A DNA stretch of 64,000 nucleotides from a virus (lineage: Duplodnaviria; Heunggongvirae; Uroviricota; Caudoviricetes), in IMG/VR virus record IMGVR_UViG_3300012983_000030; one strand, 5' to 3'. Position 1 is the stretch's first letter. Each line of letters begins with the position of its first letter. Shown piece after piece: positions 11,740 through 62,393 of the stretch. The notes beneath the pieces are model-generated. The model searched no databases, was not told the DNA's origin, and saw nothing but the letters and a program-made list of their open reading frames with translations. A program made the translations under genes and the position numbers.

Positions 11740-11753
11740 TTTATTTTTCCTTC

Positions 11754-29831: not shown

Positions 29832-30266
29832 TTATATTTCGATTACGTTAACTCCAGCTTCTTCTGCTAATTTTTTAGCCATTTCTAAGTTAGTTTTCCA
29901 ATATTCTGAAACAGTATTATCTTTTTTTGAGTTTCTATAATAAATAGTTTTTATTCCAGATTGAATTATAATAGATGTACAATGTATACAAGAGGGATAA
30001 CCATAAACATAAATATCACAATCTGTTAAATCTTGTTTTGCATATAAAATTGCATTTTCTTCAGCGTGTAACATCAAAAGGCGCTTTATTTCTTTATCAT
30101 TAAGTCTTTCTGAATTATCATCAATTCCTTTAGCAAATCCATTAAAACCAGTACTAACTACCCTATTATTTTTATCTACAATTACGGCACCTATTTTATG
30201 ATTAGGATCTTTTGACATTGTAGATACTAATTCTGCCATTTTAATAAAATGATTTATCCATTTCAT
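29832..30266 (-). CDS. dCMP deaminase
   Basis: SKDPNHKIGAVIV...TGFNGF...HAEENAI...CIHC Zn motifs. Confidence 0.9.
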   Translation of the reverse strand: MKWINHFIKMAELVSTMSKDPNHKIGAVIVDKNNRVVSTGFNGFAKGIDDNSERLNDKEIKRLLMLHAEENAILYAKQDLTDCDIYVYGYPSCIHCTSIIIQSGIKTIYYRNSKKDNTVSEYWKTNLEMAKKLAEEAGVNVIEI

Positions 30267-34495: not shown

Positions 34496-35712
34496 TGATG
34501 AGCTATTATAATGATTTATTACAGTTTATAAAAGATAATGCCAATTGGATTGAATTATTGGCAAACGCTCCATATTTTATAACTGTTAAACAATGTCCTT
34601 TTAAAGACGATTCTGAAAATCTATTATATCCAGAATTATATATGTTTTCTTATAGTCAATTTGAAAGTGATTTTACTAATCCAATTGTAAAAGCTTGTCG
34701 AGGTAGCATTGTTTCGATTGAAAATAATGCACCTTATATGGTTTGTACGCCTTTTTACAAATTTGGTAATTATGGAGAAAATTATACAGATGAAATCGAT
34801 TGGGAATCTGTAGTTGTTAGAGACAAAGTAGATGGTTGTTTGATTAAATTATTTAATTATAAAAATCATTGGTATTGGATTACTAACAACGGTTGGGATA
34901 TTAAAGCAAATTTACCATCTGCTTTAAAATGTTGTTATGTAGAAAAAGCAACTGAAAATGCTAAAACTTTTGAAGATTTAATTCAATATACCTTAAAAGT
35001 TAATCATTTATCCTTTTCAGAAGAAAGTTTAAATCCAGACTATACGTATATGTTTGAATTAATATCTCCACAAAATAGAATAATTTGTGAATATGAAAAA
35101 ACTGAATTATATTTATTAGGTGGACGTAATAAACAAACCTATCAAGAATTTACTCCTGAACAACTACAGAAAGATTTTGAAAGTCTAAAATCTTTTAAAA
35201 TACCAACTGTATTTAATATTAATAATATTAATGATATTATTGCATTATGTAATTCATATTCTGACACTAAATATGAAGGAGTAGTAGTTTGTGATAAAAA
35301 CTTTAAACGTTTTAAAATTAAATGTGCTCATTATTTAGAAATAAAAGGGTTTAAGCATTTATTTGAAGGTTTTACTGATACAAAAATTTTTGAATCTTGG
35401 AAAAATGGTACAATAGATGATGTAATCGGTGTATTTCCAGCAATACAAACTCAATTAACTAAAATCAAAGAAGTATATGCAGAAGCCAAAAAAAGAATAG
35501 ATATGTTATTTCAATTGGCTAATATAAAATATACTGAATTACTTTTAGAAAAACGTACTAAAAAAGATTATGCTTTTTGGGTACAAAAAAATTTCAAAGA
35601 CTTGAGCAGTTTAATGTTTTTTGCAATTAAAGATGATGTAAAAATAGAAGACTTCATTTCACGTCTTAAATATGAACAAATTGAACAGTATGCTAATTTA
35701 TATAAGGAATAA
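34495..35712 (+). CDS. RNA ligase, T4 Rnl1-like
   Basis: KACRGSI, PFYKFGN, KVDG (motif I), FELISPQN, EGVVV, RFKIK. Confidence 0.85.
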   Translation: MMSYYNDLLQFIKDNANWIELLANAPYFITVKQCPFKDDSENLLYPELYMFSYSQFESDFTNPIVKACRGSIVSIENNAPYMVCTPFYKFGNYGENYTDEIDWESVVVRDKVDGCLIKLFNYKNHWYWITNNGWDIKANLPSALKCCYVEKATENAKTFEDLIQYTLKVNHLSFSEESLNPDYTYMFELISPQNRIICEYEKTELYLLGGRNKQTYQEFTPEQLQKDFESLKSFKIPTVFNINNINDIIALCNSYSDTKYEGVVVCDKNFKRFKIKCAHYLEIKGFKHLFEGFTDTKIFESWKNGTIDDVIGVFPAIQTQLTKIKEVYAEAKKRIDMLFQLANIKYTELLLEKRTKKDYAFWVQKNFKDLSSLMFFAIKDDVKIEDFISRLKYEQIEQYANLYKE

Positions 35713-35714
35713 AA

Positions 35715-36068
35715 ATGTTTTTTTCTAATACAGAAAATAAAAATTATTTATCGGTATATAATCGTATAAGACCGATACATTTGATATTTGTATCATTTTA
35801 TAATAAGCATTTTTCAGCAAGTAACAGAATGTATAGTTATGTTTGTGATGAAGAATTTTTAAAAAAATTACTAGATTTACAGTGCTTGGCTAATACAAAT
35901 ATTTCTAATAAGACTACTAACTATTTTATATGTTTGGATACATTACCTTCAGAGATACCAGCTTTAACTAAATTCTATAATAATGATTTAGTTAGCGTTT
36001 TTAAAACATATTTTGGATTAGCGGATTTAGATAAGTTATATAAAGGGGATGCAAATGTCATTGAATAA
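35715..36068 (+). CDS. Hypothetical protein, possibly degenerate BRCT-like
   Basis: NISNKTTNYFICLD resembles BRCT VSKKTDYLV. Confidence 0.5.
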   Translation: MFFSNTENKNYLSVYNRIRPIHLIFVSFYNKHFSASNRMYSYVCDEEFLKKLLDLQCLANTNISNKTTNYFICLDTLPSEIPALTKFYNNDLVSVFKTYFGLADLDKLYKGDANVIE

Positions 36069-36486
36069 TTTTATTAAACGTTTATTTAAAAAAGATAGTG
36101 TATATATACATTTGCCAGAAAGCATTTTTAAAGATAAAAAAATACTCTCATATGAAGATTTTTATAAAAAGTCTGGAATTTTAGAATATACTGAAAAAAT
36201 GCGTAAAGAAAATAAGTATAATACATATCATGTTGATAATGTAAGAGCTAATAATGAAACACAGCAAAAAATATTAGCTTTTATAACAAATAATTTAATA
36301 ACTACCAAAAATAAATATTCAAAAATGTATACTGAAAAAAAATTACGTGTAAATATTAGTTTTGAAGCTTTGATATTTGGTCCTTCTACTGATGAAAGTG
36401 TAAAAAACGATTATATTAAAATATTAAAACCTTTTAACAAACAATATAAATTAGTTACAGAGGAAATAGTAAATGGAAAACAATAA
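36049..36486 (+). CDS. Hypothetical protein
   Basis: 145 aa in operon. Confidence 0.55.
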   Translation: MQMSLNNFIKRLFKKDSVYIHLPESIFKDKKILSYEDFYKKSGILEYTEKMRKENKYNTYHVDNVRANNETQQKILAFITNNLITTKNKYSKMYTEKKLRVNISFEALIFGPSTDESVKNDYIKILKPFNKQYKLVTEEIVNGKQ

Positions 36487-36646
36487 AGAAAAAAATTTTA
36501 AAGAAATGTTTGGTTTAAAATTTGATAATGATGGTAAATGGACAGCCGAAGACATAGGTAATACACCGGTTGTGCCAAAAGCCAATAGAAAACAGCGTAG
36601 AGTAGCTAAAGTAATTTTGAGAAAAGCAAAGAAAAAGGTAAAATAA
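36473..36646 (+). CDS. Small basic protein (57 aa, not in track)
   Basis: MENNKEKNFKEMFG...ANRKQRRVAKVILRKAKKKVK; RBS GAGG. Confidence 0.55.
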   Translation: MENNKEKNFKEMFGLKFDNDGKWTAEDIGNTPVVPKANRKQRRVAKVILRKAKKKVK

Positions 36647-37089
36647 TGTATAACATAATCAATTTAAATACTACACAATCCGTAGATATAAATTTTACAG
36701 AAAATAATATTAGTAGTATTTTAAAAAAATGTAAAACACGTGATATTCCAAAAGAAGATTATGAAAAAATAGAGGCGGGCTTAAATTTATTACGTAATGT
36801 TTTTTGTAATTTTCAAGTAGATGCTACTATAGATGAAATTGATTTAGATGAAGATGTTATAGATGAAGCCTATTCAGATTTACATGGTGATTCTACATAT
36901 GATGATGGTATGAATGATGCTTGCAATAATATTAGAAAATATAAACTTTCAATGAAACAAACACATGGAATGTTATTATACAAGCTGGATAAACTAGCAT
37001 ATAATTATGGAAAGCAAGAATCATTAACAAAAGATGAAATAAAAACGATAAAAGAACTTTTAGATTATGAATATAACAAACTATGGTAA
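36646..37089 (+). CDS. Hypothetical protein
   Basis: 147 aa, TAATG coupling. Confidence 0.55.
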   Translation: MYNIINLNTTQSVDINFTENNISSILKKCKTRDIPKEDYEKIEAGLNLLRNVFCNFQVDATIDEIDLDEDVIDEAYSDLHGDSTYDDGMNDACNNIRKYKLSMKQTHGMLLYKLDKLAYNYGKQESLTKDEIKTIKELLDYEYNKLW

Positions 37090-38087
37090 AAATTAGACTT
37101 ATTTCAGATTTACATTTTACTGGTGGTATAAATGGACCAGATTGTGATAAAACGTATAAACAGTCTGGGCTATATCACTATTTTGGTAAAAAATTACAAC
37201 AAGAAACAGATTGCGTTACATTAATAGCCGGAGATATTTTAGAAGGTTTTGATAAACATTCAGATTTTTTTAATTCTTTTTTTCCAAATCAACATGTAAT
37301 TTTTGTAGAAGGTAATCATTCTGTATATATCAGAGATAAATATACAATAGATGAAATTAAACAAGAATTAAAGAAACAATTTCCAATTACACATTGCTAT
37401 TATCACTATTTAGAAAATGATTGGATGTGGATTCCAGGTTGTAATAATGAAGTAGCAGTAATAGGTAGTACTTTTTACACAGACTATCAATATAATGTAT
37501 TTGGAGATGTAAATGAGTATAATGCTCATCAACGAAGTTTAAACGCTATGTCTCTTTTATATGGTTTACCAATGCTAGAGCGTAAACCGGCAAAAAGATT
37601 AAGTAAAAAGATGATATTACATGAAAATTTATTTTTAGCAAGAATGCGTTTAAATGATTTTAAGTGGGGCAATATCTATGATAATGATTTAAAAAGAATT
37701 AGAAATCTAGACCCAGAAGATTATTTAAAAATGCATAACAAAGCTAAATTAAAAATAGAAAATGCATATAATGAAATCTTAAAATTTAATCCAAATGCTA
37801 AAATAATTTTAATGACTCATCATTGTTTATCTCATAAATGTATCGATAAACAGTATAACAAGAGTAAAGCGAATGCTAGTTATATATCAAAATTAGATTC
37901 TTGGATTGATACGATGCCAAATATTAAATTGGTTTTTTCAGGACACGTTCACTGTAGAAAAGATTTCAAATTTGGTAAAAATAAAACACGGTATATAATA
38001 AACGCATGTGGATATATACCTTATCGAGAACCATTTAAACCGAAAAAATTTAATCCAAACCTCATAATAGATACAAATAATTTGTAG
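37083..38087 (+). CDS. Calcineurin-like metallophosphoesterase
   Basis: SDLH, IAGD, EGNH, MTHH, SGHVH. Confidence 0.9.
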   Translation: MVKIRLISDLHFTGGINGPDCDKTYKQSGLYHYFGKKLQQETDCVTLIAGDILEGFDKHSDFFNSFFPNQHVIFVEGNHSVYIRDKYTIDEIKQELKKQFPITHCYYHYLENDWMWIPGCNNEVAVIGSTFYTDYQYNVFGDVNEYNAHQRSLNAMSLLYGLPMLERKPAKRLSKKMILHENLFLARMRLNDFKWGNIYDNDLKRIRNLDPEDYLKMHNKAKLKIENAYNEILKFNPNAKIILMTHHCLSHKCIDKQYNKSKANASYISKLDSWIDTMPNIKLVFSGHVHCRKDFKFGKNKTRYIINACGYIPYREPFKPKKFNPNLIIDTNNL

Positions 38088-48783: not shown

Positions 48784-50946
48784 TTATTTACCTAATTGCT
48801 CTTGAATTTGTGAATAATTTAAGAATTTACGATTTTTAAAATCTTTTTCTCTTCTAGTCTTATTCCAACCAGCTACTCTACTGAAATATCCGATTACACG
48901 AGTTAAATAAGATACTTTTTTAGATTCACATTTTGGACAGCAATCTACTTTACCTTTATGTACATATCCACATTCTGCACATTCAGAGTATACTGCATTT
49001 AATGCAAAATGTGCCATACCATATTTAATAGCATCTGAAATTAAAGTTTTGGCTTGTGAAGAAGTAACGTGTGAATCAATATTAATATGTACAATACTTC
49101 CACCTGTCATAAGAGCATTAATTTCACCGTCTCTTTTCATTTTTTCATAGATTGTATAATCTTTCCATAAAGAGCACCATTGATTAGCATATATATCATA
49201 AGTACCGTCAACCAAGATTTTATCAGATTTTGCTAATTTTGGAGCCATACCTTCGGCTGGAATTGCTTCAATATTAAAGATTATACCTTCTTCAGCTGCA
49301 ATTCTTTTACATTCATTATTAAAATATACTAAAAAGTCTTTCATATAATCAAACTCAGCATGGTTATATTTTGATTTTAAAATTTCTTCTGCTTCAACAT
49401 AACCACAGCAACCAAATGTAGAAAACATATGTGACATATTAATCCAACCGTTTGTAATCCAAGGTTGTGTTTCATATTTTTCTAATTTGTGAATTAATAC
49501 ACGATGAGCTTTAAGAATTTTAGCCATTTCTTTAACACGATCTGTTACAATAGATTTAAAATCATCATATGACTCTGCCTCATATGCAGCACGTGCAAAA
49601 TTAATTGTAACTACACGGTGTGAACCTAAAGAAACTTGTGAACCACCAAATGAGTTAACGCCTTCACCTAATTCTAACATTTCAGCATCTGAAATTAATC
49701 TACAACAAGATGCAACTTTTGTACCTTCTGAACAATAAATGTTAAATCTAGAAATATCTTTTTTAACAATATAATTTAACAAAGCATTATTTTCAGTAGT
49801 TAACTTGCGTTCACCGGTTTCAGCATTTACATCAATACCTAAGTTAATAGTAGTTACTGGAAATGGGAATTGCAAACCATTACGTAATGGATCACCTTCA
49901 TTAAAGATATCGATATACATTTCTTGTAATTCTTCAATATAATCTAATACAAATTCTTTAAATGCTTCTTTTGTATTTTCTAGATTATTATCTTCTACTA
50001 CAGCTGCTTTCTTTTGGAAATACCATGCATAGTTATCTTCATCTATTAAACCACGTAATTTATCTCTATCGAAACAAGAAACGTTAGTAAATGGAGATTC
50101 TACTGAGTTTCTAGAATAGTGATTAACAGTATGAATAAATTGTTGTAAATGGTTTGACATTGCTTTACGTACTTTTTTATCTGTACGTAAATCATCTAAA
50201 GTAATTCTTTCTTTATATATAGCTAAGTGAGCAATATCTAAAAAGAAAGTACCAACTGCGATAGCACCTGCAACATTGAATGAGATTTCTCTAATTGTAT
50301 CACCGAGAACAGAAATATAGGTAGCTACACGATGAGCAGGACTAGAATGTACTTGACCAAAATTACGACCTTCCATTACAATCTTAGAAGCATCAATACA
50401 ATAACAATATGGAACAAGAATCTTAGTGGAATCATTTAAAGCTAAGGAAAAATCAAACATTGAAGCCATACATTTTTTAGCTTCATCTTTACCATATAAT
50501 TCTTTTAAAGTTTGATATAAATAATCATATCCAACTAACTTTTTATAAGGCAAGAAAGCTTCGCCTTGAATACCTTCCATATTTGTTGAAGTTTTATTTG
50601 CATTGTCATCAACAGAAATATCATTAACTGTTTGTAAATTACCAAAAGTCAAAGTAGAAATAGTAGATAATGGATCGAAATGCTTTTGTGATAAACCATG
50701 TAAACTTAAAATATCCTCTACTTTTTGTTTTAATTCTTCTCTATCTTTGACGCCATATTTTGATTTAATTGATTTTGCTAAACATTCAGCGATATTTTTT
50801 TGTGTCCTAGTAGTATTGGCTTCAGATAAACTAATATCAATTAATTTATTCATTTCTTCTTGGTATGGATTTTCTTCTAAAGCATTAAATACCGGATATT
50901 TAATCTTAATCGCTTTTTTATCAGACGTCATGTTATTTCCCTTCAT
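48784..50946 (-). CDS. nrdD: Anaerobic (class III) ribonucleotide reductase, no ATP-cone (likely start ATG 50931)
   Basis: YCYCID, ESPFTN, ASCCRL finger loop, IPAEG, CAEC...CPKC, TRVIGY glycyl-radical motif. Confidence 0.95.
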   Translation of the reverse strand: MKGNNMTSDKKAIKIKYPVFNALEENPYQEEMNKLIDISLSEANTTRTQKNIAECLAKSIKSKYGVKDREELKQKVEDILSLHGLSQKHFDPLSTISTLTFGNLQTVNDISVDDNANKTSTNMEGIQGEAFLPYKKLVGYDYLYQTLKELYGKDEAKKCMASMFDFSLALNDSTKILVPYCYCIDASKIVMEGRNFGQVHSSPAHRVATYISVLGDTIREISFNVAGAIAVGTFFLDIAHLAIYKERITLDDLRTDKKVRKAMSNHLQQFIHTVNHYSRNSVESPFTNVSCFDRDKLRGLIDEDNYAWYFQKKAAVVEDNNLENTKEAFKEFVLDYIEELQEMYIDIFNEGDPLRNGLQFPFPVTTINLGIDVNAETGERKLTTENNALLNYIVKKDISRFNIYCSEGTKVASCCRLISDAEMLELGEGVNSFGGSQVSLGSHRVVTINFARAAYEAESYDDFKSIVTDRVKEMAKILKAHRVLIHKLEKYETQPWITNGWINMSHMFSTFGCCGYVEAEEILKSKYNHAEFDYMKDFLVYFNNECKRIAAEEGIIFNIEAIPAEGMAPKLAKSDKILVDGTYDIYANQWCSLWKDYTIYEKMKRDGEINALMTGGSIVHINIDSHVTSSQAKTLISDAIKYGMAHFALNAVYSECAECGYVHKGKVDCCPKCESKKVSYLTRVIGYFSRVAGWNKTRREKDFKNRKFLNYSQIQEQLGK

Positions 50947-51496
50947 TATTAAAATATAATATTCCTTTATCGGAGATTAGATTGTACTTACTATCATAAA
51001 AATTTTGATTTTCAGAAGCTAATATATACTCTGAATCTGTTTTTTTAGATAGTCTACTTAAATTTTTATCAAATTTACCACATTTGTAATATTTAACATT
51101 TTCTAAAGCTAATTTTTTAACAAATTCGATATCATAACCAGTAAATATACAAATGTCATATTTTTTTAAATTAGAGGTTAAATACTTAGTCAATTCTTGA
51201 TTTTTGAAGAATAAAGGATCTCCACCTAAAAAAACTAATTTATTAGTATTTGCTCTTTCTGCAAAATTTTTAATTTTTATTAGCATCTCTTCAAAAGATT
51301 CTTCATATTTTTTAAATACTTGTAAAGATACACTATGACAACCTTTACAATTATGTTCACATCCTGCCATTATAATAGCAACTGCATTTCCTTCTGGTGA
51401 AGGAAAATCTAACCAAGTCTCTTCTAAAGAAATAGTATGCTTTTTCATAGTACTCCTATATACTATTACCACGAAATAGTTAAGAAAATCAAGCAC
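50933..51496 (-). CDS. nrdG: Class III RNR activase, radical SAM (likely start ATG 51448)
   Basis: GCEHNCKGCH, LVFLGGDP, ICIFTG, KCGKF, NQNFY. Confidence 0.9.
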   Translation of the reverse strand: MLDFLNYFVVIVYRSTMKKHTISLEETWLDFPSPEGNAVAIIMAGCEHNCKGCHSVSLQVFKKYEESFEEMLIKIKNFAERANTNKLVFLGGDPLFFKNQELTKYLTSNLKKYDICIFTGYDIEFVKKLALENVKYYKCGKFDKNLSRLSKKTDSEYILASENQNFYDSKYNLISDKGILYFNNEGK

Positions 51497-52805: not shown

Positions 52806-53042
52806 TTAAGCTAGCCTTGTAATATAAATAACCTTTATAAAGTCTTTTACTGATTTTGGTAATTCACTGCCTTCGTGTGTATAAACACTGATTTGTGAAT
52901 ACTTTCTAGTTGGAAATTTGCGTTTAATAGTGTTTAGATTATCACTGATATATCCATTTGACTTAAAAGTATATATTTCTTCTCCTACTTCCATGTTTTC
53001 TATTTTAGTTAACATACTATCAGCAGAGCGTGGTTTAGGCAT
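52806..53042 (-). CDS. Small hypothetical protein
   Basis: 78 aa, RBS GGGAG, motif A at 53082-53113. Confidence 0.55.
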   Translation of the reverse strand: MPKPRSADSMLTKIENMEVGEEIYTFKSNGYISDNLNTIKRKFPTRKYSQISVYTHEGSELPKSVKDFIKVIYITRLA

Positions 53043-53133
53043 TTATAACTCCCTTATTAAACACAAATCTTAATTTATTATAACATATTATAGATTATTT
53101 TAAAAGTAAAACAATTTCTTAGATTATCAACAT

Positions 53134-53167
53134 AAAAAAATAACCTATTGATAATAAATAGGTTATT
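53134..53167 (-). terminator. Terminator
   Basis: aataacctatt/aataggttatt with A-run 53134-53140. Confidence 0.7.
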
Positions 53168-53191
53168 CTACACAAAAAGTAAAACAAAAAA

Positions 53192-53428
53192 TTATTCATC
53201 AACTACTATTTTTTTGTATCTACGACAATGACAAAAAATTTCAGTTTCACCTTCTTCTACCTTTGGATAAGAATTTCTAAAATCTTCACAGATACACAAA
53301 GTTTCAGGTGTTCTCTCTAACAAACATGGGCAATGAAAATCATTTTTTTCAACAGCCTGTGTCATTTTTTCATATATTTTTTCATTTGGATTTTTAATTA
53401 CTTTAAATTTTGTCATTTGTATCTCCAT
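53192..53428 (-). CDS. Ferredoxin:thioredoxin reductase catalytic-subunit-like protein (likely start ATG 53416)
   Basis: CPC-x9-CIC...CHC triple motif of FTR beta chain. Confidence 0.75.
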   Translation of the reverse strand: MEIQMTKFKVIKNPNEKIYEKMTQAVEKNDFHCPCLLERTPETLCICEDFRNSYPKVEEGETEIFCHCRRYKKIVVDE

Positions 53429-54005
53429 ATAACGTTTTTACTCTTGTAATAATATCTTCGATATTAATAGGGGAAAAAGGTAATGTATTCGGAAATTCAG
53501 AACTTGTATCTACTCCTATATGCACTGCTTTATACCCTAAATCTTGATAAATTTTATCATAGCTAGTTATATTATGAATATGTCCATATAAATGGATAGC
53601 ATAACTACGATAAGCTCCATCAAACTCTAAAATAGGAAAATGTGAAAGAATAAATTTAAAATGCTCTCCATTTTTACTATTATATTTTATTGTATGATAA
53701 TCTCTAACAGATTGCCATAAACCTTTATTTTTAAATTCAGCATGCTCTTTTATTTTATCGTGATTTCCTAAAATTAAATGCTTAGCTCCATTTAATTGTC
53801 CAAGAATATTTTCTAAATAATCTCTATATCCACGTAAAGAAAAATCACCCAAAACATAAACTAAATCACTTGGCTTAACTACTCTATTCCAATTAGAAAT
53901 TAAAGCATTATCATGCTCTTCTATTGAAGAAAAAGGTCTACCTTTTCCAAGAGTTATAATACTTCTATGTCCAAAATGTAAATCCGAAGTAAACCAAATA
54001 GTCAT
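53403..54005 (-). CDS. Calcineurin-like metallophosphoesterase
   Basis: WFTSDLHFGH, LGDF, GNHD, SHFP, HLYGHIH. Confidence 0.9.
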   Translation of the reverse strand: MTIWFTSDLHFGHRSIITLGKGRPFSSIEEHDNALISNWNRVVKPSDLVYVLGDFSLRGYRDYLENILGQLNGAKHLILGNHDKIKEHAEFKNKGLWQSVRDYHTIKYNSKNGEHFKFILSHFPILEFDGAYRSYAIHLYGHIHNITSYDKIYQDLGYKAVHIGVDTSSEFPNTLPFSPINIEDIITRVKTLYGDTNDKI

Positions 54006-54008
54006 CTT

Positions 54009-54215
54009 TTACCACACTATATATTTTTTAACATTATCTTTTATTATATAAAGTTCTCTTTCTTTTGAAAAATTTTCTTTTACAATATATATTTTGTTAT
54101 TTTTTATATTCCTAATTTTACAACCATGCCCAATTACACTACCGGTCTGAGCGTATTTATAATTTTTTATATCTTCTATCACACCGTCTTTATAAGTATC
54201 TCCTGGCTTATACAT
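54009..54215 (-). CDS. Hypothetical protein
   Basis: 68 aa, RBS AAGGA. Confidence 0.55.
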   Translation of the reverse strand: MYKPGDTYKDGVIEDIKNYKYAQTGSVIGHGCKIRNIKNNKIYIVKENFSKERELYIIKDNVKKYIVW

Positions 54216-54268
54216 CTTTAAATCCTTTAATATTAAAACATAACTATATTAATATTACATTAAAAAAA

Positions 54269-54634
54269 TTAAGAAGTAAAGCCAGAATTTTCCCAAATAT
54301 ATACTGGAATTCCTTTTTTCTTAGCTTTTATTATTGAATCCAAAGTACCTTTTGATTTATTAACAACAAAAGCGATTACAGCATCCGCATTATCAATAAT
54401 GGTCTGATTACGTAAAAAACCAGCTATTTTACCATTTTGATTCCAATCTGGTAAATAAACTTCCATATCTAGATTAAATTCTTCAGCAAACTTTTCAGCT
54501 AAAGTATCAGCACCTTTGGCACCGCCAGATACAATAGTATCAAATTTGTTTAAATTAACACTTTTCAATACAAATAATTTTAATATTGAATAATCATTAA
54601 AAGTACGAGACCCTATAATCGCTAATTTTGCCAT
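54269..54634 (-). CDS. SLOG/DUF2493 (YspA/DprA-like) protein
   Basis: LAIIGSRTF, IVSGGAKGAD, AGFLRNQTII, SKGT. Confidence 0.85.
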   Translation of the reverse strand: MAKLAIIGSRTFNDYSILKLFVLKSVNLNKFDTIVSGGAKGADTLAEKFAEEFNLDMEVYLPDWNQNGKIAGFLRNQTIIDNADAVIAFVVNKSKGTLDSIIKAKKKGIPVYIWENSGFTS

Positions 54635-54635
54635 A

Positions 54636-55511
54636 TTACACCGCTATTGGAAAAGATACTTTTGGACCATGTTCATAATTTTCAAGAGTTGCCATTTCAT
54701 ATCTAAAGTTAAATACATCTGCTTCTGGAGTTAAGACCAACTTAGGTAATTTGAAATCAGTTTGTTTCCAAGCTTCCATATTTTCTTTTACTATAGATAC
54801 GTGATTGTCGTATATATGACAATTACAAAGATTTAATGTAACAGTACCTGGTACCATTCCTACAGTTTGAGCAACTAAGTGTAATAACAAGCTATAAAAT
54901 TGAAAATCAGTAGGTACACCTAAAATTAAATCACAAGAACGTTGATTTACAGTAATATGTAAACGTCCGCCTAAATAATTAAATTGAAATACATATACGC
55001 AAGGAGGTAATGCCATTTGATCTTCTTGAGATGGATTCCATGCATTTACAATCAATCTTCTATCATATGGATTCTTTTTTAAAGTATCTATAACGCGTTT
55101 TATTTGATTAATACCTAAATGCTTATTATCAATGTCATATCTTTCATATGGAGCATTAAATGCAACCCATTGATAGCCATAAATTGGACCAAGGTCACGT
55201 TCGTTAAATTGGGCTTCTTTATCTTTTGGATCAGCAGCTTTTGGATTAGCCCAAGAATTCCAATATTGACATCCTCTATCTTGATAATACTTTTTATCTG
55301 TATTACCCATTAAAAAACATTCTAATTCTACACGACAACCTTTAAACGGTAAAGGTCTAAATGTTAAAATTGGAAAGCCTTCTGCTAAATCATGAGTTAA
55401 AACTTTGTTTAATTTTACTAATGTATTATTTCCTGTACGACAAGGACTTTCTATGCCTTCATTTAAAATTTCTTCTACTAAATCTAAATATTGCTTATCA
55501 TAACTATTCAT
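54636..55511 (-). CDS. thyA: Thymidylate synthase-family enzyme (Asp at the conserved Asn position)
   Basis: CRTG, LGPIYGYQW, DRRLIVNAWNP, LPPC, QRSCDLILGVPTD, CHIYDNH. Confidence 0.9.
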   Translation of the reverse strand: MNSYDKQYLDLVEEILNEGIESPCRTGNNTLVKLNKVLTHDLAEGFPILTFRPLPFKGCRVELECFLMGNTDKKYYQDRGCQYWNSWANPKAADPKDKEAQFNERDLGPIYGYQWVAFNAPYERYDIDNKHLGINQIKRVIDTLKKNPYDRRLIVNAWNPSQEDQMALPPCVYVFQFNYLGGRLHITVNQRSCDLILGVPTDFQFYSLLLHLVAQTVGMVPGTVTLNLCNCHIYDNHVSIVKENMEAWKQTDFKLPKLVLTPEADVFNFRYEMATLENYEHGPKVSFPIAV

Positions 55512-55579
55512 TATAATCCCCTTTTTGAAATTAATCTATAATATAGAATTCATATTAAACAACTAGTCTAATAATTATT

Positions 55580-56251
55580 TTAATCCCAAGTCATACTTTT
55601 TACTAATTCCCAAGGAGCAATATTACTGTCTTTTAATTTACGATATATTTGATATGTATTGTTTCTATTTATATATTCGCCTTTTACTTTTCCATTCCAT
55701 CTTTCCAAGATATAAGTTTCTGCTTCTTCTAAAGTATTTAAATCCATATATAAAGGCATATAATTGTTACTTATCCACTTATGAATATTTTCATAATTTT
55801 TTGTAATACAATGTCTAATGTCACCGTTTGGATAACGTACATCTACTAAATATTTATATAAAGAGGGCCATTTAGATATAATTTCTACTACTTCAACTAA
55901 AGATTTGTTTATAAACTCAGGTCTAGAAAAGCCTGCAATTTGTACACGTTTAACAATACAGCGAGAAGGAAGAATATTAATATTTCTTCCAATTGGCATA
56001 TTGTGTACTGCATATATTAATATATTTGTCGGATTAATCCCAGCTTTTGTTTCTAAAATTCGCCATTGTCTAGAAAAACGTATATTTTCAAAAGTATGAC
56101 TAAAAGTGTCTTTCTTTACTTCTATATCAATTAAATATCCGTTTTTTAGATTAACACAAGCATCTAAATCAGTAATGCCATTAGAAAATCGGCTCAGTGA
56201 GCTAAAATCTAATGGCTGTTCTAAAGCTTCTTGATTGCGTATAATTGACAT
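55580..56251 (-). CDS. Putative PD-(D/E)XK nuclease-fold protein with C-terminal extension
   Basis: ITDLDACV...LIDIEVK; own motif A promoter. Confidence 0.5.
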   Translation of the reverse strand: MSIIRNQEALEQPLDFSSLSRFSNGITDLDACVNLKNGYLIDIEVKKDTFSHTFENIRFSRQWRILETKAGINPTNILIYAVHNMPIGRNINILPSRCIVKRVQIAGFSRPEFINKSLVEVVEIISKWPSLYKYLVDVRYPNGDIRHCITKNYENIHKWISNNYMPLYMDLNTLEEAETYILERWNGKVKGEYINRNNTYQIYRKLKDSNIAPWELVKSMTWD

Positions 56252-56276
56252 TAATTACTCCTTGTTAACTATACCC

Positions 56277-56308
56277 AGTATAAAGCTAATTATATTTAAT
56301 GTAAAACA
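56277..56308 (-). promoter_or_regulatory. Motif A early promoter
   Basis: Minus strand TGTTTTACA-N17-TATACT. Confidence 0.65.
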
Positions 56309-56313
56309 GATTT

Positions 56314-56685
56314 CTATTTATTTTCTTTTTTTATATCTTGTAATTCAAACCATACCAAACACATCATATTCCACAACGCAGCTTGCAAATGTGTAGATGG
56401 AGTATTTTCAAAATTAGGATCTTCATCCCAACGATTACCTTTTTTATATTCTACCCAATGTCTTAGCATTGCTGCTTCATAACGAGATTGAGCATTATCT
56501 AATTTTTGCCAATTGTTTGGACCATATTTTGCACTACCAACAGTAAAACGTTTTACTGCTGCTTCAATTACTTCCCAAGGTAATAAAGAATAATCAAGCT
56601 TACCTGTATCCCATTTCATACCAACAGATAAATCTTTTTTACCAACAACTTCTTTATATTCTTTCTTTTTATCAGCCATTATCAA
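56314..56685 (-). CDS. dATP/dGTP diphosphohydrolase-domain protein (DUF5664-like)
   Basis: GMKWDTGKLDYSLLP...GSAKYGPNNWQK...AAMLRH...HLQAALWNMMCL. Confidence 0.8.
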   Translation of the reverse strand: MIMADKKKEYKEVVGKKDLSVGMKWDTGKLDYSLLPWEVIEAAVKRFTVGSAKYGPNNWQKLDNAQSRYEAAMLRHWVEYKKGNRWDEDPNFENTPSTHLQAALWNMMCLVWFELQDIKKENK

Positions 56686-56744
56686 TAATCCCTTTATTCA
56701 AGGGCCACAATAATTATTATCATGACCCTTTACGCTTCCCAAGC

Positions 56745-57281
56745 TTATTTTGTACCAGTACTTCCAAAAGCACCTGATTGTCTTTTTGTTTTAGGTCCTT
56801 GTTCATAAGCACTATTTGAAATTTGTATTGCAGCTTCATTCGAAATAGAATGAATAATACCTTGAATAATCTTTTCACCAGGGTTAATCACAGCTGCCCA
56901 TTCTTTAAATCCAAGAAATCCTAAAAATCCACGACGACGAATACGAACATCTTCTTTACCACGAACTACTTTAAATAAGTTAATATGAATTTCTCCACGA
57001 TAACCCGCATCAATAATAGTAGCTCCATATACAGTACCTTTTTTCAAAGATACTCCTGACTTATTGTCCATCTTCATCATTTGAGTATTTTTTAATTTAA
57101 TTTTAATACCTGATGGAATATTAACTTGCTCACCTAAACGAAGATAATATGGTTTGCCTTCATTCCAATCATTTGGAACAAAAAAATCAAAACCTGCATC
57201 TTCATCTCTATTACCTGTAATGTCTTTTACATCACGAACTTTTGTATACTGCATTTTAAAATCCTTTCTTTTAATAATCAC
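56745..57281 (-). CDS. dut: Trimeric dUTPase with an insertion between motifs III and IV
   Basis: DAGFDF, NKSG, IIDAGYRGEI, EKIIQG, RQSGAFGSTG. Confidence 0.9.
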   Translation of the reverse strand: MIIKRKDFKMQYTKVRDVKDITGNRDEDAGFDFFVPNDWNEGKPYYLRLGEQVNIPSGIKIKLKNTQMMKMDNKSGVSLKKGTVYGATIIDAGYRGEIHINLFKVVRGKEDVRIRRRGFLGFLGFKEWAAVINPGEKIIQGIIHSISNEAAIQISNSAYEQGPKTKRQSGAFGSTGTK

Positions 57282-57372
57282 ATTTTATAGAATGTGAAAC
57301 CTATCATTTTTCTACAAAATATTTTTTATTTATTTCCAAACTCTATGAAAATTTAATAATTTCAATTTATAA

Positions 57373-57388
57373 GTTCTAAATAAATAAG
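57373..57388 (+). promoter_or_regulatory. Motif B
   Basis: GTTCTaaataaataag. Confidence 0.5.
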
Positions 57389-57985
57389 TTGTTATATAGA
57401 ATAAGGGAAAATAAAATGTCTAACTTTAGTGTTATGGTAAAAAATGTATTAAAAGAACATAATATCGTATTAAGTGAAGATTCTATTGAAGATTTAAAAA
57501 AGCAAATTAAATATTTAGAAGATGAAATCGCTCGTAATGAATTAGCTGATAATTTTTATTATACAAACGGTGGATATGATTCAGATTCTGCTCAATTACG
57601 TAAATTAAAGAATAAATTAAATGAATTAGAAAGAGCTTCTCGTACTCCAGAAGAAAATGAAAGATTAGATGCCGAAGAAAGAGAACGTAGAGAAAAAGAG
57701 AAAAAGGCCGCTGCAGATTACAATAAGTCTTTATATGATGTTCTTGAAAAATTTCATTTTAACGAAGGTGATAAAATAAAAAACCGCGAAACTGGTGAAA
57801 TTTATGTTGTAGATGAAGTTACAAAAAAATGGGATAGCCATGGTGAAAACTATCCCAAAATGACACCTTATTATCATTATCATATTACATGTTTAGATCC
57901 AAATGCAAAAGATAACTTTGGTAGACCAAAATCTTACTATACCGGTGAAGTTATTCATCGTGGATACGATCTTTATGAAGAATAA
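57389..57985 (+). CDS. Putative internal head protein (likely start ATG 57418)
   Basis: MSNFSVMVKNVLKEHNIVLSEDSIE propeptide-like start; isolated + strand gene with motif B. Confidence 0.55.
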   Translation: MLYRIRENKMSNFSVMVKNVLKEHNIVLSEDSIEDLKKQIKYLEDEIARNELADNFYYTNGGYDSDSAQLRKLKNKLNELERASRTPEENERLDAEERERREKEKKAAADYNKSLYDVLEKFHFNEGDKIKNRETGEIYVVDEVTKKWDSHGENYPKMTPYYHYHITCLDPNAKDNFGRPKSYYTGEVIHRGYDLYEE

Positions 57986-58642
57986 TTAATCTATCCAGTC
58001 TATTTCTGGTAATCCATTGTAAGAATTATCCCAAATAAACATTGCATATGCGGCGGCACCACCATTTTTAAAAGTGCCGCCATTTTTTCCACAGCCTTGC
58101 CTATTTACATATTGCCATACATGTTTAAGTTTTCTATTCTTAAATAAATCTAAACGTCCTTTTGTTTCTAAAAAAGTAGTTTTCAAAAACATAATACAAA
58201 TACCATCAGAATCTAGTAATTCTAAAGATTTTTCAACAAATGTTTTGGATAAAGCATACGGAGGATTAGTAAATATACACTTTAAATATGGCTTCCATTC
58301 ATCACGTAAATTTTCTTTATTTAACTGTAAAAAGTCAATATTACCTTCACCATATCCTCTATCTACTAAATCAGTACCCAATACATCATATCCTTCAGCT
58401 ACTAATTCTTTTGCAATATGTCCTTGTCCAACCGCACATTCCCAAATCTTTTTTGGTAATTTAAAATTTCTTTCTTTACATTTTTTAAGAAAGAGTTGAA
58501 TTGATTCAGGATGAGTCGCATAAAAGTCATTTTCTGCTACATTTTCTTCTTTAGTACGATGATTGCAAGCATAAATAGCTGTATTTCCTGTCCAATCTTT
58601 AGCCATTTTAATATTCCTCCTGTGTATTACCAGATTCTTCAT
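57986..58642 (-). CDS. DNA N6-adenine (or N4-C) methyltransferase, phage type
   Basis: DFYATH, IWECAVGQGHI (SAM motif), TDLVDRGYG, IFTNPPY. Confidence 0.85.
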   Translation of the reverse strand: MKNLVIHRRNIKMAKDWTGNTAIYACNHRTKEENVAENDFYATHPESIQLFLKKCKERNFKLPKKIWECAVGQGHIAKELVAEGYDVLGTDLVDRGYGEGNIDFLQLNKENLRDEWKPYLKCIFTNPPYALSKTFVEKSLELLDSDGICIMFLKTTFLETKGRLDLFKNRKLKHVWQYVNRQGCGKNGGTFKNGGAAAYAMFIWDNSYNGLPEIDWID

Positions 58643-61600
58643 ACATGTGTTTATATTTATTCCAATAGTGATATTTTGCTTTTAATACATAAATATGGTC
58701 TTTTTCTAATTTACATGGTATCATTTCAAGTAATTCATTTAAAGGTACCTGTGAAATTAGAATTGGAGACAATTTTTGACAAGCAGCGAATCGATTGCCT
58801 TCGCCCCAATCTTGACGTTTAATATGTCTTTCTAAGGCTTTTATCGTTACTTGTCCTTTATATTGAGTAGGTTGCTTTAATTCCTCTTTTAATTTAGGTA
58901 AATTATCAAGAATAGACTCTACATCAAATTCATATTTATTTTCACTATATAAAGTTTGTAATTCACCTGTTTTTGGATTCTCTTGATCAGGTGTACGCGT
59001 ATATCTACTAGGCTGTGCGCATTGTTCATCTGCATTCTGTAAGCCTAGATTATATGCTAAATAATACCAAATCTTTTTATAAGCTGTACTTGTAACAGGT
59101 TTATTTAGTCTCACGACAATATGATATGACCTATGTCCTGACCATACAATACGATAAGTATATTGTTCAATCTTCTTAATCAATTCTTCTTGCTCTTCTC
59201 TACTCAAATAGTCACATTCAAATAAGAAGTTTTGCGATACTACACCTGCTTTGGTTGGATATAAATCAGTATTGTCTTTTAATGGATTCAAAGCTTGTAA
59301 ATATGCAGGTTCTTCTACTTTTGTATAATTAATATCATAATATGGACCAAATACTTCTTTTCTATTTAATAAATTCTTTGCAAAATTAACATATTCAGAA
59401 GTATTTATTTCATCCATTTCCAATTTATTGATATCATCAACAATAAGCATATGGTCTGTAAAACCTGTAATCTTAGAAATAGAATTAGTCAAAGCAGTAA
59501 TATTATTACCATTTTCATCTTTCATGGCTTTGCCTTTGGCATCTTTTACAACTACTTCTCTTTCATTTCTACTTCTACTATAATAAGCTTGAGTTCGAGG
59601 ATCATCTGCTTTACCAATAACAAAAGCCAAACTTCTACCTTCTACTTTTTTATTAGTTGTAGCATCATAAATTTCACCAACACTGTGTCGTTTATATATT
59701 ACAAAATCTCGTGGTAATACTCCTTCTAACAAAGCTTTATGAGTAACAATATTACATAAAATCTTTGAAGTTGCTTTACCAAACTTTTCATTTGATAAAT
59801 AAAATCCTTTTGATTTTACTTTACCATTTGTAAATTGACAATAATAATTATTTACATTATTTTGTTGTAAAATAGCAATCTCATCAAACTCTAATACTAA
59901 GCGAGTTTCTTCCATCCATTTTTCACAGATTGGCATAAAATCAACATCAGATTGTCTTTCAATCATAATACCATCTGTATTAGTCTGAACAATATTAAAA
60001 CCTGCTTCAAATAAACGCTTTGCTAAGATAAATAATAAAAGCTGACCATGTACACATATGGTTGAATTTGACCAAGTATCATATAATGGATTATATGCAG
60101 AAAGCATAGCTCCGATTGCACCATTTAATACTAATTTTAGACCTTGATTAAGTAAGTCTTTTCCAGTATGTTTTGCTTCAATTCTAGTCTTATATACTTG
60201 CTCATAAGAATCTGGATTTGCAGCAGCTCCTCGTGACATTAATCCATACTGAATTAATAAAGAAGGATACAAACTTGCAACGTCCATATTTACAAGATTT
60301 TCTGATCCATAACCTAATAAGGCTTGATGTAATCCTCCAAATCCAAATTGATACAAGTGACCTTCATCTTCACCACCCATATAATATTCAAACTTTTCCT
60401 TTATGTAATTTTCATTATCTTGATTTTTTAAATAAAAGTCAAGTAAAGTGGTACCAGCTAATTCTTTCATAGCCAATTCAGGAATAGCATAAAACTGTTT
60501 TTTATTGTTTACTATTTTAAAGGTATTTGCAGAATTTGGTTTTGCATCTTCACCACATAATACTTTTCCTGCGAAAGAAGCGGACTTAGTGATTAAATTC
60601 AAAGCCTTCATTTTATATTCTACAATCAAATTCCACTTAATATCATATGAATCTCTTGCAAATTCACGCATTTTATATTTTGGATTTTCTTTTTTGGCTT
60701 CAACATCTTCTGGTTTAGGCAAAAACAATTCTAATGTATTATCTACGTCCATTTCGCAGTATCTTTCAACATCTATTCTTTCAGAAGGTGTTAATGGAGT
60801 TTGAATATCAAAAGGTACGCTAGAATCATAATTACGTTTATCTAAAACTGACATTGTTAATTTTTTCAAAGAATTTCTACGAATATCAAAAGGTAGATGT
60901 AAAGAAATATCCCATGAAATAAAGTTTGGAGGAGTAACATTAGGAATTACTTCACCTCTACTATTATAGCAAAGTCCATGCTCTACTTTACATACTTTGT
61001 ATTCTTCTTTAAAATCAGGATATCTTTTTACTTGTTCATCATTAATTAAAGCATCTGAAAATTCTTTTACAGTTTTAGTATCTTCTACTGCATAAGGATA
61101 TGCCATTGCATGTCTAATTACTGAATCGTCATACCCACTATTATTAAAACCAATTAAGATTTTATCTTTTATCCATTCTCTTAAACTGTCAGCATCATTC
61201 CAACAAATTACAGTATTCTTTTTATCTAAACTCTTAGCTACAAATAACCAATCGTACTTAAATACCTCAATATCGTATACCCACTCATAACGATGATCTA
61301 TATTATATCCATCTCGTTCACGCTGTTTTGCATCCATTGTATCATGAATATATTTTTTATAGGCATCTTTATACCATTTATCATACCATTCTGAGCGTGT
61401 ACCATTTGGATTAGATTCATCACCTCTAAATACAAAACTTGAGCGTGTAGAATTTAATTTTGAACCTTCTTCTTCGCTTATTGGTGTAATAAATAAAGGT
61501 TGTTTTGTTTCAGTATCTTTATATTTATATGAAGAAAGAATTGTTTCAATATCCTCACTATAAACAGGCACTGTAGTTAAAGCTTTCTTAAGTGCCGCTT

Positions 61601-62393
61601 TAAATTCTTCTTTTATTTCAACAGAATCTTCTTCGCAAATTTTATCGTTAAGAGAATAAAGCAACTCTATATTAGTAAATGCATCATAAATTTTAAAATA
61701 TTCTGTTTTTTTAGCAATTTTATTTATTTTTGTATTAAATCTAAAACCTTTTAATATACCTTCATTATATAAATCACAGATACTATTGAGTTTATTGATG
61801 ATTGTTCTTGTATCACAATATGGAGATTTTACAATATTTTTACTTATTTCTGTTTCATCTAATATTGATGCAATTTGTGAATAGTCTTCGTTTACACCCG
61901 GAAGAACAATATAAGGAATATGCCAAGACTCTTTAATAGATATTTCTTTACTAAATATTTCAATAGTATTATTATATTCACGTAAAGTACAAATTCTACC
62001 ATCTGAATCAATTGAAGAAGAATAATCTTCTTTAAATGCATCAAAAGCGGCTTGTCCAACAAAACCAAATATTAATTCATTTTTATGAAGTGTGCCTTTT
62101 TTAAAATATCTTTCTAAAATTGGAATTAATGTTAATCTTGAAAAATTTTTCTCATCTATATTAGATACTGCACAAATATGTGTTTCTGCTGATTTAAATT
62201 TACTTTTAAAACATTCAGATAAATACATCAAACCTTTAGTAGAATTGAATAACTCTTCTTTATCATTTTCTAATGGTCTATCCATTATTAAAATAAGTTT
62301 TGGACCAAGAGTACTTTCATAATCATTTAGCAAAGGTCTGTTGATGTACATATATATATTCTCCAAATTAGTGTATATAAAAATAGAATCCAC
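58608..62393 (-). CDS. Family-B DNA polymerase with N-terminal UDG-like and C-terminal AEP primase/PriCT-like domains
   Basis: Exo YDIEVF, GFNNSGYDD, YCEMDV; Pol MDVASLYPS, KLVLNGAIG, NTDG; C-terminal FLFECD, SGHRSYH, D...SRYTRTP, GEGNR. Confidence 0.9.
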   Translation of the reverse strand: MDSIFIYTNLENIYMYINRPLLNDYESTLGPKLILIMDRPLENDKEELFNSTKGLMYLSECFKSKFKSAETHICAVSNIDEKNFSRLTLIPILERYFKKGTLHKNELIFGFVGQAAFDAFKEDYSSSIDSDGRICTLREYNNTIEIFSKEISIKESWHIPYIVLPGVNEDYSQIASILDETEISKNIVKSPYCDTRTIINKLNSICDLYNEGILKGFRFNTKINKIAKKTEYFKIYDAFTNIELLYSLNDKICEEDSVEIKEEFKAALKKALTTVPVYSEDIETILSSYKYKDTETKQPLFITPISEEEGSKLNSTRSSFVFRGDESNPNGTRSEWYDKWYKDAYKKYIHDTMDAKQRERDGYNIDHRYEWVYDIEVFKYDWLFVAKSLDKKNTVICWNDADSLREWIKDKILIGFNNSGYDDSVIRHAMAYPYAVEDTKTVKEFSDALINDEQVKRYPDFKEEYKVCKVEHGLCYNSRGEVIPNVTPPNFISWDISLHLPFDIRRNSLKKLTMSVLDKRNYDSSVPFDIQTPLTPSERIDVERYCEMDVDNTLELFLPKPEDVEAKKENPKYKMREFARDSYDIKWNLIVEYKMKALNLITKSASFAGKVLCGEDAKPNSANTFKIVNNKKQFYAIPELAMKELAGTTLLDFYLKNQDNENYIKEKFEYYMGGEDEGHLYQFGFGGLHQALLGYGSENLVNMDVASLYPSLLIQYGLMSRGAAANPDSYEQVYKTRIEAKHTGKDLLNQGLKLVLNGAIGAMLSAYNPLYDTWSNSTICVHGQLLLFILAKRLFEAGFNIVQTNTDGIMIERQSDVDFMPICEKWMEETRLVLEFDEIAILQQNNVNNYYCQFTNGKVKSKGFYLSNEKFGKATSKILCNIVTHKALLEGVLPRDFVIYKRHSVGEIYDATTNKKVEGRSLAFVIGKADDPRTQAYYSRSRNEREVVVKDAKGKAMKDENGNNITALTNSISKITGFTDHMLIVDDINKLEMDEINTSEYVNFAKNLLNRKEVFGPYYDINYTKVEEPAYLQALNPLKDNTDLYPTKAGVVSQNFLFECDYLSREEQEELIKKIEQYTYRIVWSGHRSYHIVVRLNKPVTSTAYKKIWYYLAYNLGLQNADEQCAQPSRYTRTPDQENPKTGELQTLYSENKYEFDVESILDNLPKLKEELKQPTQYKGQVTIKALERHIKRQDWGEGNRFAACQKLSPILISQVPLNELLEMIPCKLEKDHIYVLKAKYHYWNKYKHMYEESGNTQEEY

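Follow-up and report, generated by a model that had tools for sequence, protein, structure and literature searches.

Which pyrimidine nucleotide does a homolog of thymidylate synthase (TS; ThyA) methylate when its substrate-specificity residue is aspartate and not asparagine? The question is raised by a gene on the minus strand at positions 54636-55511 of a 64,000-nucleotide stretch of virus record IMGVR_UViG_3300012983_000030 (Caudoviricetes), the whole of which is called the window below. An earlier sequence-only reading had placed Asp at the position of Asn177 of E. coli ThyA and had proposed an enzyme that methylates or hydroxymethylates deoxycytidine monophosphate (dCMP), together with a genome of modified cytosine. 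On sequence comparison we favor, with a probability of about 0.6, a folate-dependent dCMP C5-methyltransferase (5-methyl-dCMP, or 5mdCMP, synthase), that is, a ThyA homolog retargeted from deoxyuridine monophosphate (dUMP) to dCMP. The phage DNA would then probably hold 5-methylcytosine (5mC) in place of cytosine.

The gene product has a complete TS scaffold and an altered specificity residue

54636..55511, minus strand: ThyA-fold enzyme of 291 amino acids (aa), predicted dCMP C5-methyltransferase (5mdCMP synthase), from PF00303 and the fold model

The open reading frame (ORF) starts with ATG, and the sequence AAAGGGG upstream resembles a ribosome-binding site. Its product matches PF00303 over the entire profile (positions 1-266 of 266; expect value (E) 9.4e-79; 264.7 bits against a cut-off of 24.3) and is 35-48% identical to solved and metagenomic canonical TS enzymes. 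When the AlphaFold2 model (predicted local distance difference test score 96.6) was searched with Foldseek, mouse and human TS were the top matches in the Protein Data Bank (PDB; TM score 0.88-0.92, E ~1e-32), and the C-terminus is TS-like too. As modeled, the protein is a full-length enzyme with the complete TS fold. It scores above the cut-off of the NCBIfam "thymidylate synthase" equivalog TIGR03284 (215.7 bits vs. 108.35) and below those of NF002497 and other PRK01827 models (239 vs. 327 bits for one of them). Passing TIGR03284 means that standard pipelines will name this protein, and similar Asp177 enzymes, ordinary ThyA.

We mapped residues by aligning the protein with E. coli K-12 ThyA (from NC_000913) using MAFFT, and the residue assignments rest on this alignment. 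The peptide QRSCDLILGVPTDFQFY is present in the window protein and aligns to QRSCDVFLGLPFNIASY of E. coli without gaps, as does the whole stretch from the catalytic Cys to the specificity residue. The Asp pointed out earlier, encoded by GAT at 54906-54908, is residue 202. The positions that matter for specificity and product are as follows, each identified by the alignment.

54906..54908, minus strand: GAT, Asp202, at the position of E. coli Asn177 (substrate-specificity residue); changed
54996..55001, minus strand: TGC GTA, catalytic Cys171 at the position of E. coli Cys146 (kept), followed by Val172 at that of His147 (changed)
55008..55010, minus strand: TTA, Leu168, at the position of E. 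coli Leu143, the hydrophobic "water-excluding" residue; kept
54930..54932, minus strand: GAT, Asp194, at the position of E. coli Asp169; kept, so there is no D169N signature
Residue 201, minus strand: Thr201, at the position of E. coli Phe176; changed
Residue 230, minus strand: Asn230, at the position of E. coli Asp205; changed

In E. coli numbering, which is used from here on, the protein retains Arg21, Glu58, Tyr94, Arg126', Arg127', Arg166, Ser167, His207, and Tyr209, along with the folate-contacting Trp80 and Trp83, and its C-terminal tail ends in Pro-Ile-Ala-Val. Canonical TS is recognized by Asn177 and His147, and the window protein has Asp202 and Val172 at these two places. Aligned in this way, it has a complete TS-type active site with a cytosine-type specificity residue.

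The aspartate is fixed across a clade with a probable origin of its own

A homolog search over 5.8 billion proteins placed the enzyme in a clade of 119 clusters at 90% identity, 56-88% identical to the query, with P0001 the closest at 88%. Its members come from uncultured phages of ~230 kb; almost all have a length of 291 aa, and contigs of 200-250 kb carry many of them. Asp177 is found in 119 of the 119 cluster representatives and is therefore no chance or sequencing feature. Leu143, Cys146, and Asp169 are equally invariant. Three further positions, which the sequence-only reading had not mentioned, differ from E. coli ThyA throughout the same representatives: position 147 is Val, Leu, Met, or Ile and never His; position 176 is Thr, Ala, or Ser instead of Phe; and position 205 is Asn instead of Asp in all but two. 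The nearest sequence beyond the clade, P0120, is 48% identical and has Phe-Asn like E. coli. At 50% clustering the entire clade collapses into one representative, and the next relatives are 41-44% identical.

In a FastTree phylogeny of 93 sequences, which are divergent, with long branches that should not be over-read, the clade has a support of 100 and nests in a group of 21 sequences that all carry Asp177 (support 94). This group lies in turn within a well-supported cluster of "long-form" TS, most members of which have Asn177. About 11 changes between Asp and Asn at position 177 are needed on the tree, at least six of them forced by strongly supported branches, and Asp177 thus arose repeatedly. 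ThyA of phage PaMx74, our reference for the enzyme type of phage Xp12, sits elsewhere on a long branch, and judging from these sequences the Asp177 of the clade probably has an origin separate from that of the assayed Xp12 type. The phylogeny proposed earlier as a check thus gave a fully supported all-Asp177 clade and no common descent with the PaMx74 enzyme. The 5mdCMP synthases are a functional, polyphyletic class, and lack of common descent with Xp12/PaMx74 does not exclude the function. Across the tree, His147 is kept in all 57 sequences with Asn177 and lost in 28 of the 36 with Asp177.

Asp177 also occurs in about 25 of 150 distant TS representatives (including P0157, P0194, P0205, P0236, and P0255). 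Some of these are 480-550 aa in length, retain both His147 and Phe176, and are possibly fusions or intein-containing forms.

Published residue rules point to 5mdCMP as the product

The meaning of these residues has been worked out in other systems. MetaGPA, in which cytosine-modified phage DNA is selected enzymatically, found the TS domain to be the family most associated with modification, and positions 177 and 147 to be the two most discriminating residues, in that order: at position 177, unmodified contigs have Asn and most modified contigs have Asp (PMC8670742). The Asn-to-Asp mutants of Lactobacillus casei TS (Asn229Asp) and E. coli TS (Asn177Asp) methylate dCMP, according to Liu & Santi 1992 and Hardy & Nalivaika 1992 as cited in PMC8670742. 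A more recent set of rules holds that N177D marks dCMP as the substrate; that a large hydrophobic side chain at 143 keeps water out and yields a methyl product, while the T4-like 5-hydroxymethyl-dCMP synthases and MilA have Asp or Glu there; and that D169N is the mark of 5-hydroxy-dCMP synthases (PMC13326640). Of seven Asp177 homologs tested in vivo, five produced 5mdCMP, as did the enzyme of Xp12, and PaMx74 ThyA is a homolog of the producing enzyme from a phage said to replace cytosine entirely with 5mC (bioRxiv 10.1101/2024.12.05.627091).

By these rules, the combination L143/C146/V147/D169/D177 of the window protein is the signature of a 5mdCMP synthase. PaMx74 ThyA has the same L143/D169/D177 with a non-His residue at 147, and T4 gp42, which has Asp143, does not. 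The predicted substrate is dCMP because of Asp177; the predicted product is methyl and not hydroxymethyl because Leu143 is kept, whereas T4 gp42 and MilA have Asp or Glu; and 5-hydroxy-dCMP synthesis is ruled out, as far as the rules apply, because Asp169 is kept. Literature and comparisons thus bear out the earlier proposal of a dCMP-directed enzyme, which Leu143 narrows to a predicted methylase, and they lend support to the modified-cytosine genome.

The sequence-only reading had also cautioned that a deaminase encoded in the window would feed a normal TS. The published associations turn this caveat around, as PF00383 deaminases co-occur with Asp177 ThyA in modified-cytosine viral contigs: a TS homolog is found within 3 kb for 70% of the PF00383 deaminases on modified contigs vs. 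6% of those on unmodified ones, and most of these TS homologs have Asp177 (bioRxiv 10.1101/2024.12.05.627091). Several of these deaminases convert 5-methyl-C nucleotides to thymidine (dT) nucleotides, and for one 5mC-selective enzyme, mSCD-B5, the closest solved structure is 7FH4 of PBCV-1 (bioRxiv 10.1101/2024.12.05.627091). IMG/VR has already been mined by the rule that a contig carry both PF00383 and an Asp177-bearing PF00303 homolog (bioRxiv 10.1101/2024.12.05.627091), which by construction would pick up contigs such as those of three near-complete relatives described below (G001-G003).

Comparison with known TS-family enzymes

The closest functional parallel is the Xp12/PaMx74-type ThyA of the Pamexvirus group, which has the same Leu143, Cys146, non-His147, Asp169, and Asp177. 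Both settings include a small PF00383 deaminase and a deoxynucleoside triphosphate (dNTP) pyrophosphohydrolase near the TS gene; dihydrofolate reductase (DHFR) and the lack of a second TS are likenesses seen in relatives of the window phage. The two enzymes are nevertheless only 29% identical and far apart in the tree. DUF5664 stands here instead of a pyrophosphohydrolase of the MazG or PRA-PH type, the deaminase gene is adjacent there and 24 kb off here, and a siphovirus of ~60 kb and 67% G+C contrasts with a T4-like myovirus of an anaerobe with ~230 kb and 27% G+C.

The scaffold itself is that of canonical ThyA (EC 2.1.1.45) in its long form, found in eukaryotes, some archaea, and many phages. 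The window protein shares its fold (TM ~0.9), its length, both characteristic insertions, the catalytic and phosphate-binding residues, Trp80/Trp83, and the C-terminal tail, and differs in the clade-fixed changes of Asn177 to Asp, His147 to Val, Phe176 to Thr, and Asp205 to Asn. The laboratory Asn177Asp and Asn229Asp mutants carry the same single substitution on an otherwise canonical scaffold; the natural enzyme adds fixed second-shell changes at 147, 176, and 205, which may tune the site for cytosine.

T4 gp42 (family of PDB 1B5E) belongs to the same superfamily, has the catalytic Cys and Asp177, and comes from a T4-like phage. It differs in having Asp143, in lacking the C-terminal segment, in its length of 246 aa, and in being only 22-25% identical, and it makes a hydroxymethyl group and releases tetrahydrofolate. 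The 5-hydroxy-dCMP synthases of RB69, DLP3, and RL38J1 are likewise Asp177 ThyA homologs acting on dCMP, in T4-like and other phages (PMC13326640), but they combine Asn169 with Glu143 where the window protein has Asp169 and Leu143.

Partner genes in the window and in related phages

The window has 27% G+C (73% A+T) and encodes a T4 Gp23-type capsid protein, a sigma factor, an NAD-ligase, and an RNA repair set of the Rnl1/PNK type. Judged by its Gp23-type capsid protein, the phage is T4-like. A megablast search of 50,697 phage records with 12 kb gave no match, and in tblastn the best cultured-phage matches fell below 40% identity, with no cultured relative in that collection. We therefore turned to four IMG/VR contigs (loci L001-L004) whose homologs are 58-62% identical, and we used the three near-complete relatives (G001-G003; 227-237 kb, 93-98% complete) for genome-wide checks of gene content. 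The gene order common to the relatives runs polymerase, NPPY methyltransferase-like gene, dUTPase, (DUF5664), TS, small genes, NrdG, NrdD. The genes of the window that bear on nucleotide supply are the following.

29832..30266, minus strand: dCMP/dCTP-deaminase-family protein, 144 aa, candidate 5-methyl-deoxycytidine (5-methyl-dC) nucleotide deaminase; found by tblastn with the PF00383 genes of relatives (58-71% identity)
56314..56685, minus strand: DUF5664 (PF18909) dNTP diphosphohydrolase-family protein, candidate enzyme for making dCMP from dCTP; E 7.8e-24
56745..57281, minus strand: dUTPase-family protein, 178 aa; PF00692, E 2.5e-9; beside the TS gene in all relatives (L001-L004)
48784-50946, minus strand: anaerobic ribonucleotide reductase NrdD; PF13597, E 4e-71; syntenic in relatives
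50933-51496, minus strand: NrdD activase NrdG; PF13353 and PF04055; syntenic in relatives

The best solved relative of the deaminase is 7FH4, the bifunctional dCMP/dCTP deaminase of PBCV-1 (E 5e-18), and the protein is 36% identical to the product of the PaMx74 cd gene. By these resemblances, it probably makes dT nucleotides from 5-methyl-dC nucleotides. DUF5664 adjoins the TS gene here and in G003; its product showed no similarity to the two PaMx74 pyrophosphohydrolases or to PDB entries, and a DUF5664 member from phage Wayne converts dNTPs to deoxynucleoside monophosphates (dNMPs; PMC12884076). NrdD and NrdG are a sign of an anaerobic host.

Each of the three near-complete relatives has at least one PF00383 deaminase, a DHFR, and a single PF00303 gene, the Asp177 one. 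The search for a second thyA or thyX that had been suggested thus found one TS-family gene per relative and no ThyX (PF02511). The same genomes contained no Tmk. As for post-replicative routes to modified cytosine, they contained no C5 DNA methyltransferase; no TET/JBP match was seen in relatives either, in a search that had no positive control and shows little. A reaction that releases dihydrofolate would fit the presence of DHFR in relatives whose only TS-family gene is the Asp177 one. In two relatives (G001, G002), the dUTPase and TS genes flank a gene for a T4 gp1-like dNMP kinase of 211-212 aa (L001:2754-3392 and L002:8065-8700), whose P-loop reads GLKGSGKDT and which suggests a non-canonical dNMP; the gene is absent from G003.

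At 55580-56251 (minus strand), between the TS and DUF5664 genes and about where G001 and G002 have the gp1-like kinase, the window encodes a 223-aa protein with no Pfam match, which contains an LIDIEVKK motif of the PD-(D/E)xK type and has a 30% identical homolog in L002 (8718-9380). We considered and rejected it as the missing dNMP kinase, given the lack of a P-loop, the D-x-E-x-K-like motif, and the lack of similarity to T4 gp1. A Z-genome (2-aminoadenine), raised by a Dut-like gene beside DUF5664 as in PurZ0 phages, was also discarded, as none of the three near-complete relatives has a PurA/PurZ homolog.

Weighing the alternatives

Several observations weigh against a 5mdCMP synthase. The clade is an independent lineage with 29% identity to the assayed Xp12/PaMx74 type, so the residue rules are extrapolated over ~70% sequence divergence, and two of the seven tested Asp177 homologs gave no detectable 5mdCMP (bioRxiv 10.1101/2024.12.05.627091). 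Counted over phylogenetically independent pairs, the coupling of positions 147 and 177 comes to n = 6 with p ~0.5, an underpowered test, and only the raw counts point the expected way; for the coupling of 176 and 205 to 177 the same test was equally underpowered (6 pairs, p ~0.5). In most published cases the deaminase and TS genes are at most 3 kb apart, and in the window the distance is 24 kb. The relatives do not share a conserved dCTP-clearing enzyme (PF18909 in one of the three near-complete relatives, MazG in none), which makes complete replacement of cytosine uncertain, and neither the gp1-like kinase nor DHFR was found within the 64 kb window. Finally, dCMP deaminase, dUTPase, DHFR, and TS together also look like the ordinary pathway to thymidine monophosphate (dTMP).

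This textbook set of genes, the passed TIGR03284 cut-off (215.7 vs. 108.35 bits), and the two homologs without detectable 5mdCMP (bioRxiv 10.1101/2024.12.05.627091) would all fit an ordinary TS in a clade that tolerates Asp177, converts dUMP to dTMP, and leaves cytosine unmodified. We nevertheless regard this as distinctly unlikely: the Asn-to-Asp change converts L. casei and E. coli TS into dCMP methylases (as cited in PMC8670742), Asp177 is enriched in experimentally selected cytosine-modified contigs (PMC8670742), His147 is lost clade-wide while none of the 57 Asn177 sequences lacks it (against 28 of 36 with Asp177), and a non-canonical dNMP is suggested by the gp1-like kinase that adjoins the gene in relatives. 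A dual-substrate methylase is plausible for the only TS of an AT-rich phage and still unlikely; both dUMP and dCMP would then be methylated, giving dTMP directly as well as 5mdCMP, and the deaminase would act on ordinary dCMP or dCTP. The strict fixation of Asp177 over the depth of the clade and the loss of His147 argue for commitment to cytosine, and in the Xp12-type precedent dT comes from the deamination of 5-methyl-dC nucleotides and not from dual specificity; on the other side, a 73% A+T phage needs much dTTP, the near-complete relatives have this one TS-family gene, the dUMP-type machinery is intact apart from 147 and 177, and a dUTPase, which yields dUMP, is always adjacent.

A hydroxymethylase releases tetrahydrofolate and needs no DHFR, so the DHFR of the relatives would be superfluous to a dCMP hydroxymethylase making 5-hydroxymethyl-dCMP as T4 gp42 does, possibly for later glycosylation. 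Such an enzyme would share Asp177 with gp42 and suit a phage that is T4-like by its Gp23-type capsid protein, but Leu143 is kept where gp42 and MilA have Asp or Glu, the C-terminal tail that gp42 lacks is present, and identity to gp42 is 22-25% over part of the length (25% over 126 residues) compared with 35-48% to canonical TS. No homolog of the T4 beta-glucosyltransferase was found in the relatives, in a search without a positive control, and taken together we consider hydroxymethylation very unlikely. Still other C5 chemistry, such as 5-hydroxy-dCMP synthesis, comes to mind because unexpected reactions of TS homologs have recently been demonstrated (PMC13326640); neither the window protein nor any of the 119 clade members carries D169N, however, and an inactive or regulatory TS paralog sits poorly with catalytic residues that are all intact and strongly conserved, so that this last group of explanations is highly improbable. 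A 5mdCMP synthase remains the reading we favor.

A proposed route to 5mC and thymidine

In a 5mdCMP synthase of this kind, Asp177 would form hydrogen bonds to cytosine at N3 and the 4-amino group, where the canonical Asn contacts N3-H and O4 of uracil. Cys171 (E. coli Cys146) would attack C6 of dCMP, and methylenetetrahydrofolate would donate the carbon. With Leu143 and the closing C-terminus retained, hydride transfer from the cofactor would complete the methyl group and release dihydrofolate, which the DHFR found in relatives would recycle. In L. casei TS, truncation of the C-terminus abolishes dTMP formation and not the partial reactions.

Around this step, the anaerobic ribonucleotide reductase NrdD/NrdG would lead to dCTP, and dCMP would come from dCTP through a dNTP diphosphohydrolase (DUF5664 here), from the breakdown of host DNA, or from both. 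The TS homolog would convert dCMP to 5mdCMP, and kinases (such as the gp1-like dNMP kinase adjoining the gene in two relatives) would phosphorylate it further to 5mdCTP, for use in phage DNA. Some of the 5-methyl-dC nucleotides would be converted to dT nucleotides by the PBCV-1-like deaminase; because the deaminase would supply these, no second thymidylate synthase would be needed, as has been proposed for Xp12. The dUTPase would keep uracil out of DNA. In virions, 5mC would replace much or all of the cytosine and blunt restriction.

Other features of the window

The stop codon of the TS gene is followed, after one base, by the start of a gene for a 121-aa SLOG-family protein at 54269-54634 (minus strand; YAcAr PF10686, E 6e-11; also DprA-like). 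Given this spacing, the SLOG gene is probably translationally coupled to the TS gene. It has no counterpart beside the TS gene in relatives L001-L004. SLOG/LOG proteins bind or cleave nucleotides, and so a role in the modified-nucleotide pool is possible for this candidate. A scan of 53000-58800 for promoters and terminators returned 38 sites where 38.1 were expected.

In the window and in L002, a single ORF of 720 aa encodes NrdD. Two adjacent ORFs, which match ~575 and ~135 residues and leave the C-terminal piece separate, take its place in L001 (9747-11966), L003 (13437-15632), and L004 (13437-15632); a natural split, a frameshift, or the remnant of an intron or intein could account for this.

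Positions 57986-58642 (minus strand) encode a protein of 218 aa that contains the motif TNPPY and is kept beside the dUTPase and polymerase genes in relatives. It has only sub-threshold matches to the Eco57I and Dam N6-adenine methyltransferases and is likely, from motif and matches, an adenine methyltransferase. The 1261-aa ORF at 58608-62393 (minus strand) has no Pfam match at E<=0.01 and is conserved in relatives at 58-73% identity. Elsewhere, 10462-13223 (minus strand), 26852-28066 (plus strand), and 33989-38087 (plus strand) hold two RCC1-repeat proteins, an M16 insulinase-type peptidase, and the RNA-repair set, the last made up of an AAA_33 kinase, a T4 Rnl1-type RNA ligase, and a metallophosphatase.

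Discussion

The Asp177 principle, the diagnostic residue, and the partnership with a deaminase are already published, and Asp177 is a standard screening criterion; the finding, even if true, opens no new principle. The novelty lies in the lineage, which is independent and belongs to a T4-like phage with an anaerobic host. We tentatively extend this to a wider proposition, for which the odds are somewhat less than even: a large clade of T4-like, AT-rich phages of ~230 kb infecting anaerobic gut and rumen bacteria would have evolved a 5mdCMP synthase from long-form ThyA, independently of the Xp12 lineage, and would route all pyrimidine methylation through it, with 5mdCMP either incorporated as 5mC or deaminated to supply all thymidine. 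If so, in a genome of 73% A+T most of the product of this "cytosine methylase" would end as thymine, and T4-like phages would have a third route to replacing cytosine, besides 5-hydroxymethylcytosine and 5-hydroxycytosine.

If the favored reading is right, this would be a further case of convergent Asn177-to-Asp retargeting, and the Xp12 scheme, with 5mC and T both supplied by a single ThyA homolog and a deaminase, would be extended to T4-like phages that infect anaerobes. The enzyme of the clade and its partner deaminase would be candidates for the toolbox of 5mC-selective deaminases (bioRxiv 10.1101/2024.12.05.627091). The presence of 5mC in phage DNA would affect restriction sensitivity, cloning, bisulfite and enzymatic methyl-sequencing, nanopore base-calling, and the inference of host range. 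The automated annotation "thymidylate synthase" would then be hiding a base-modification gene in widespread, uncultured giant phages of the gut and rumen.

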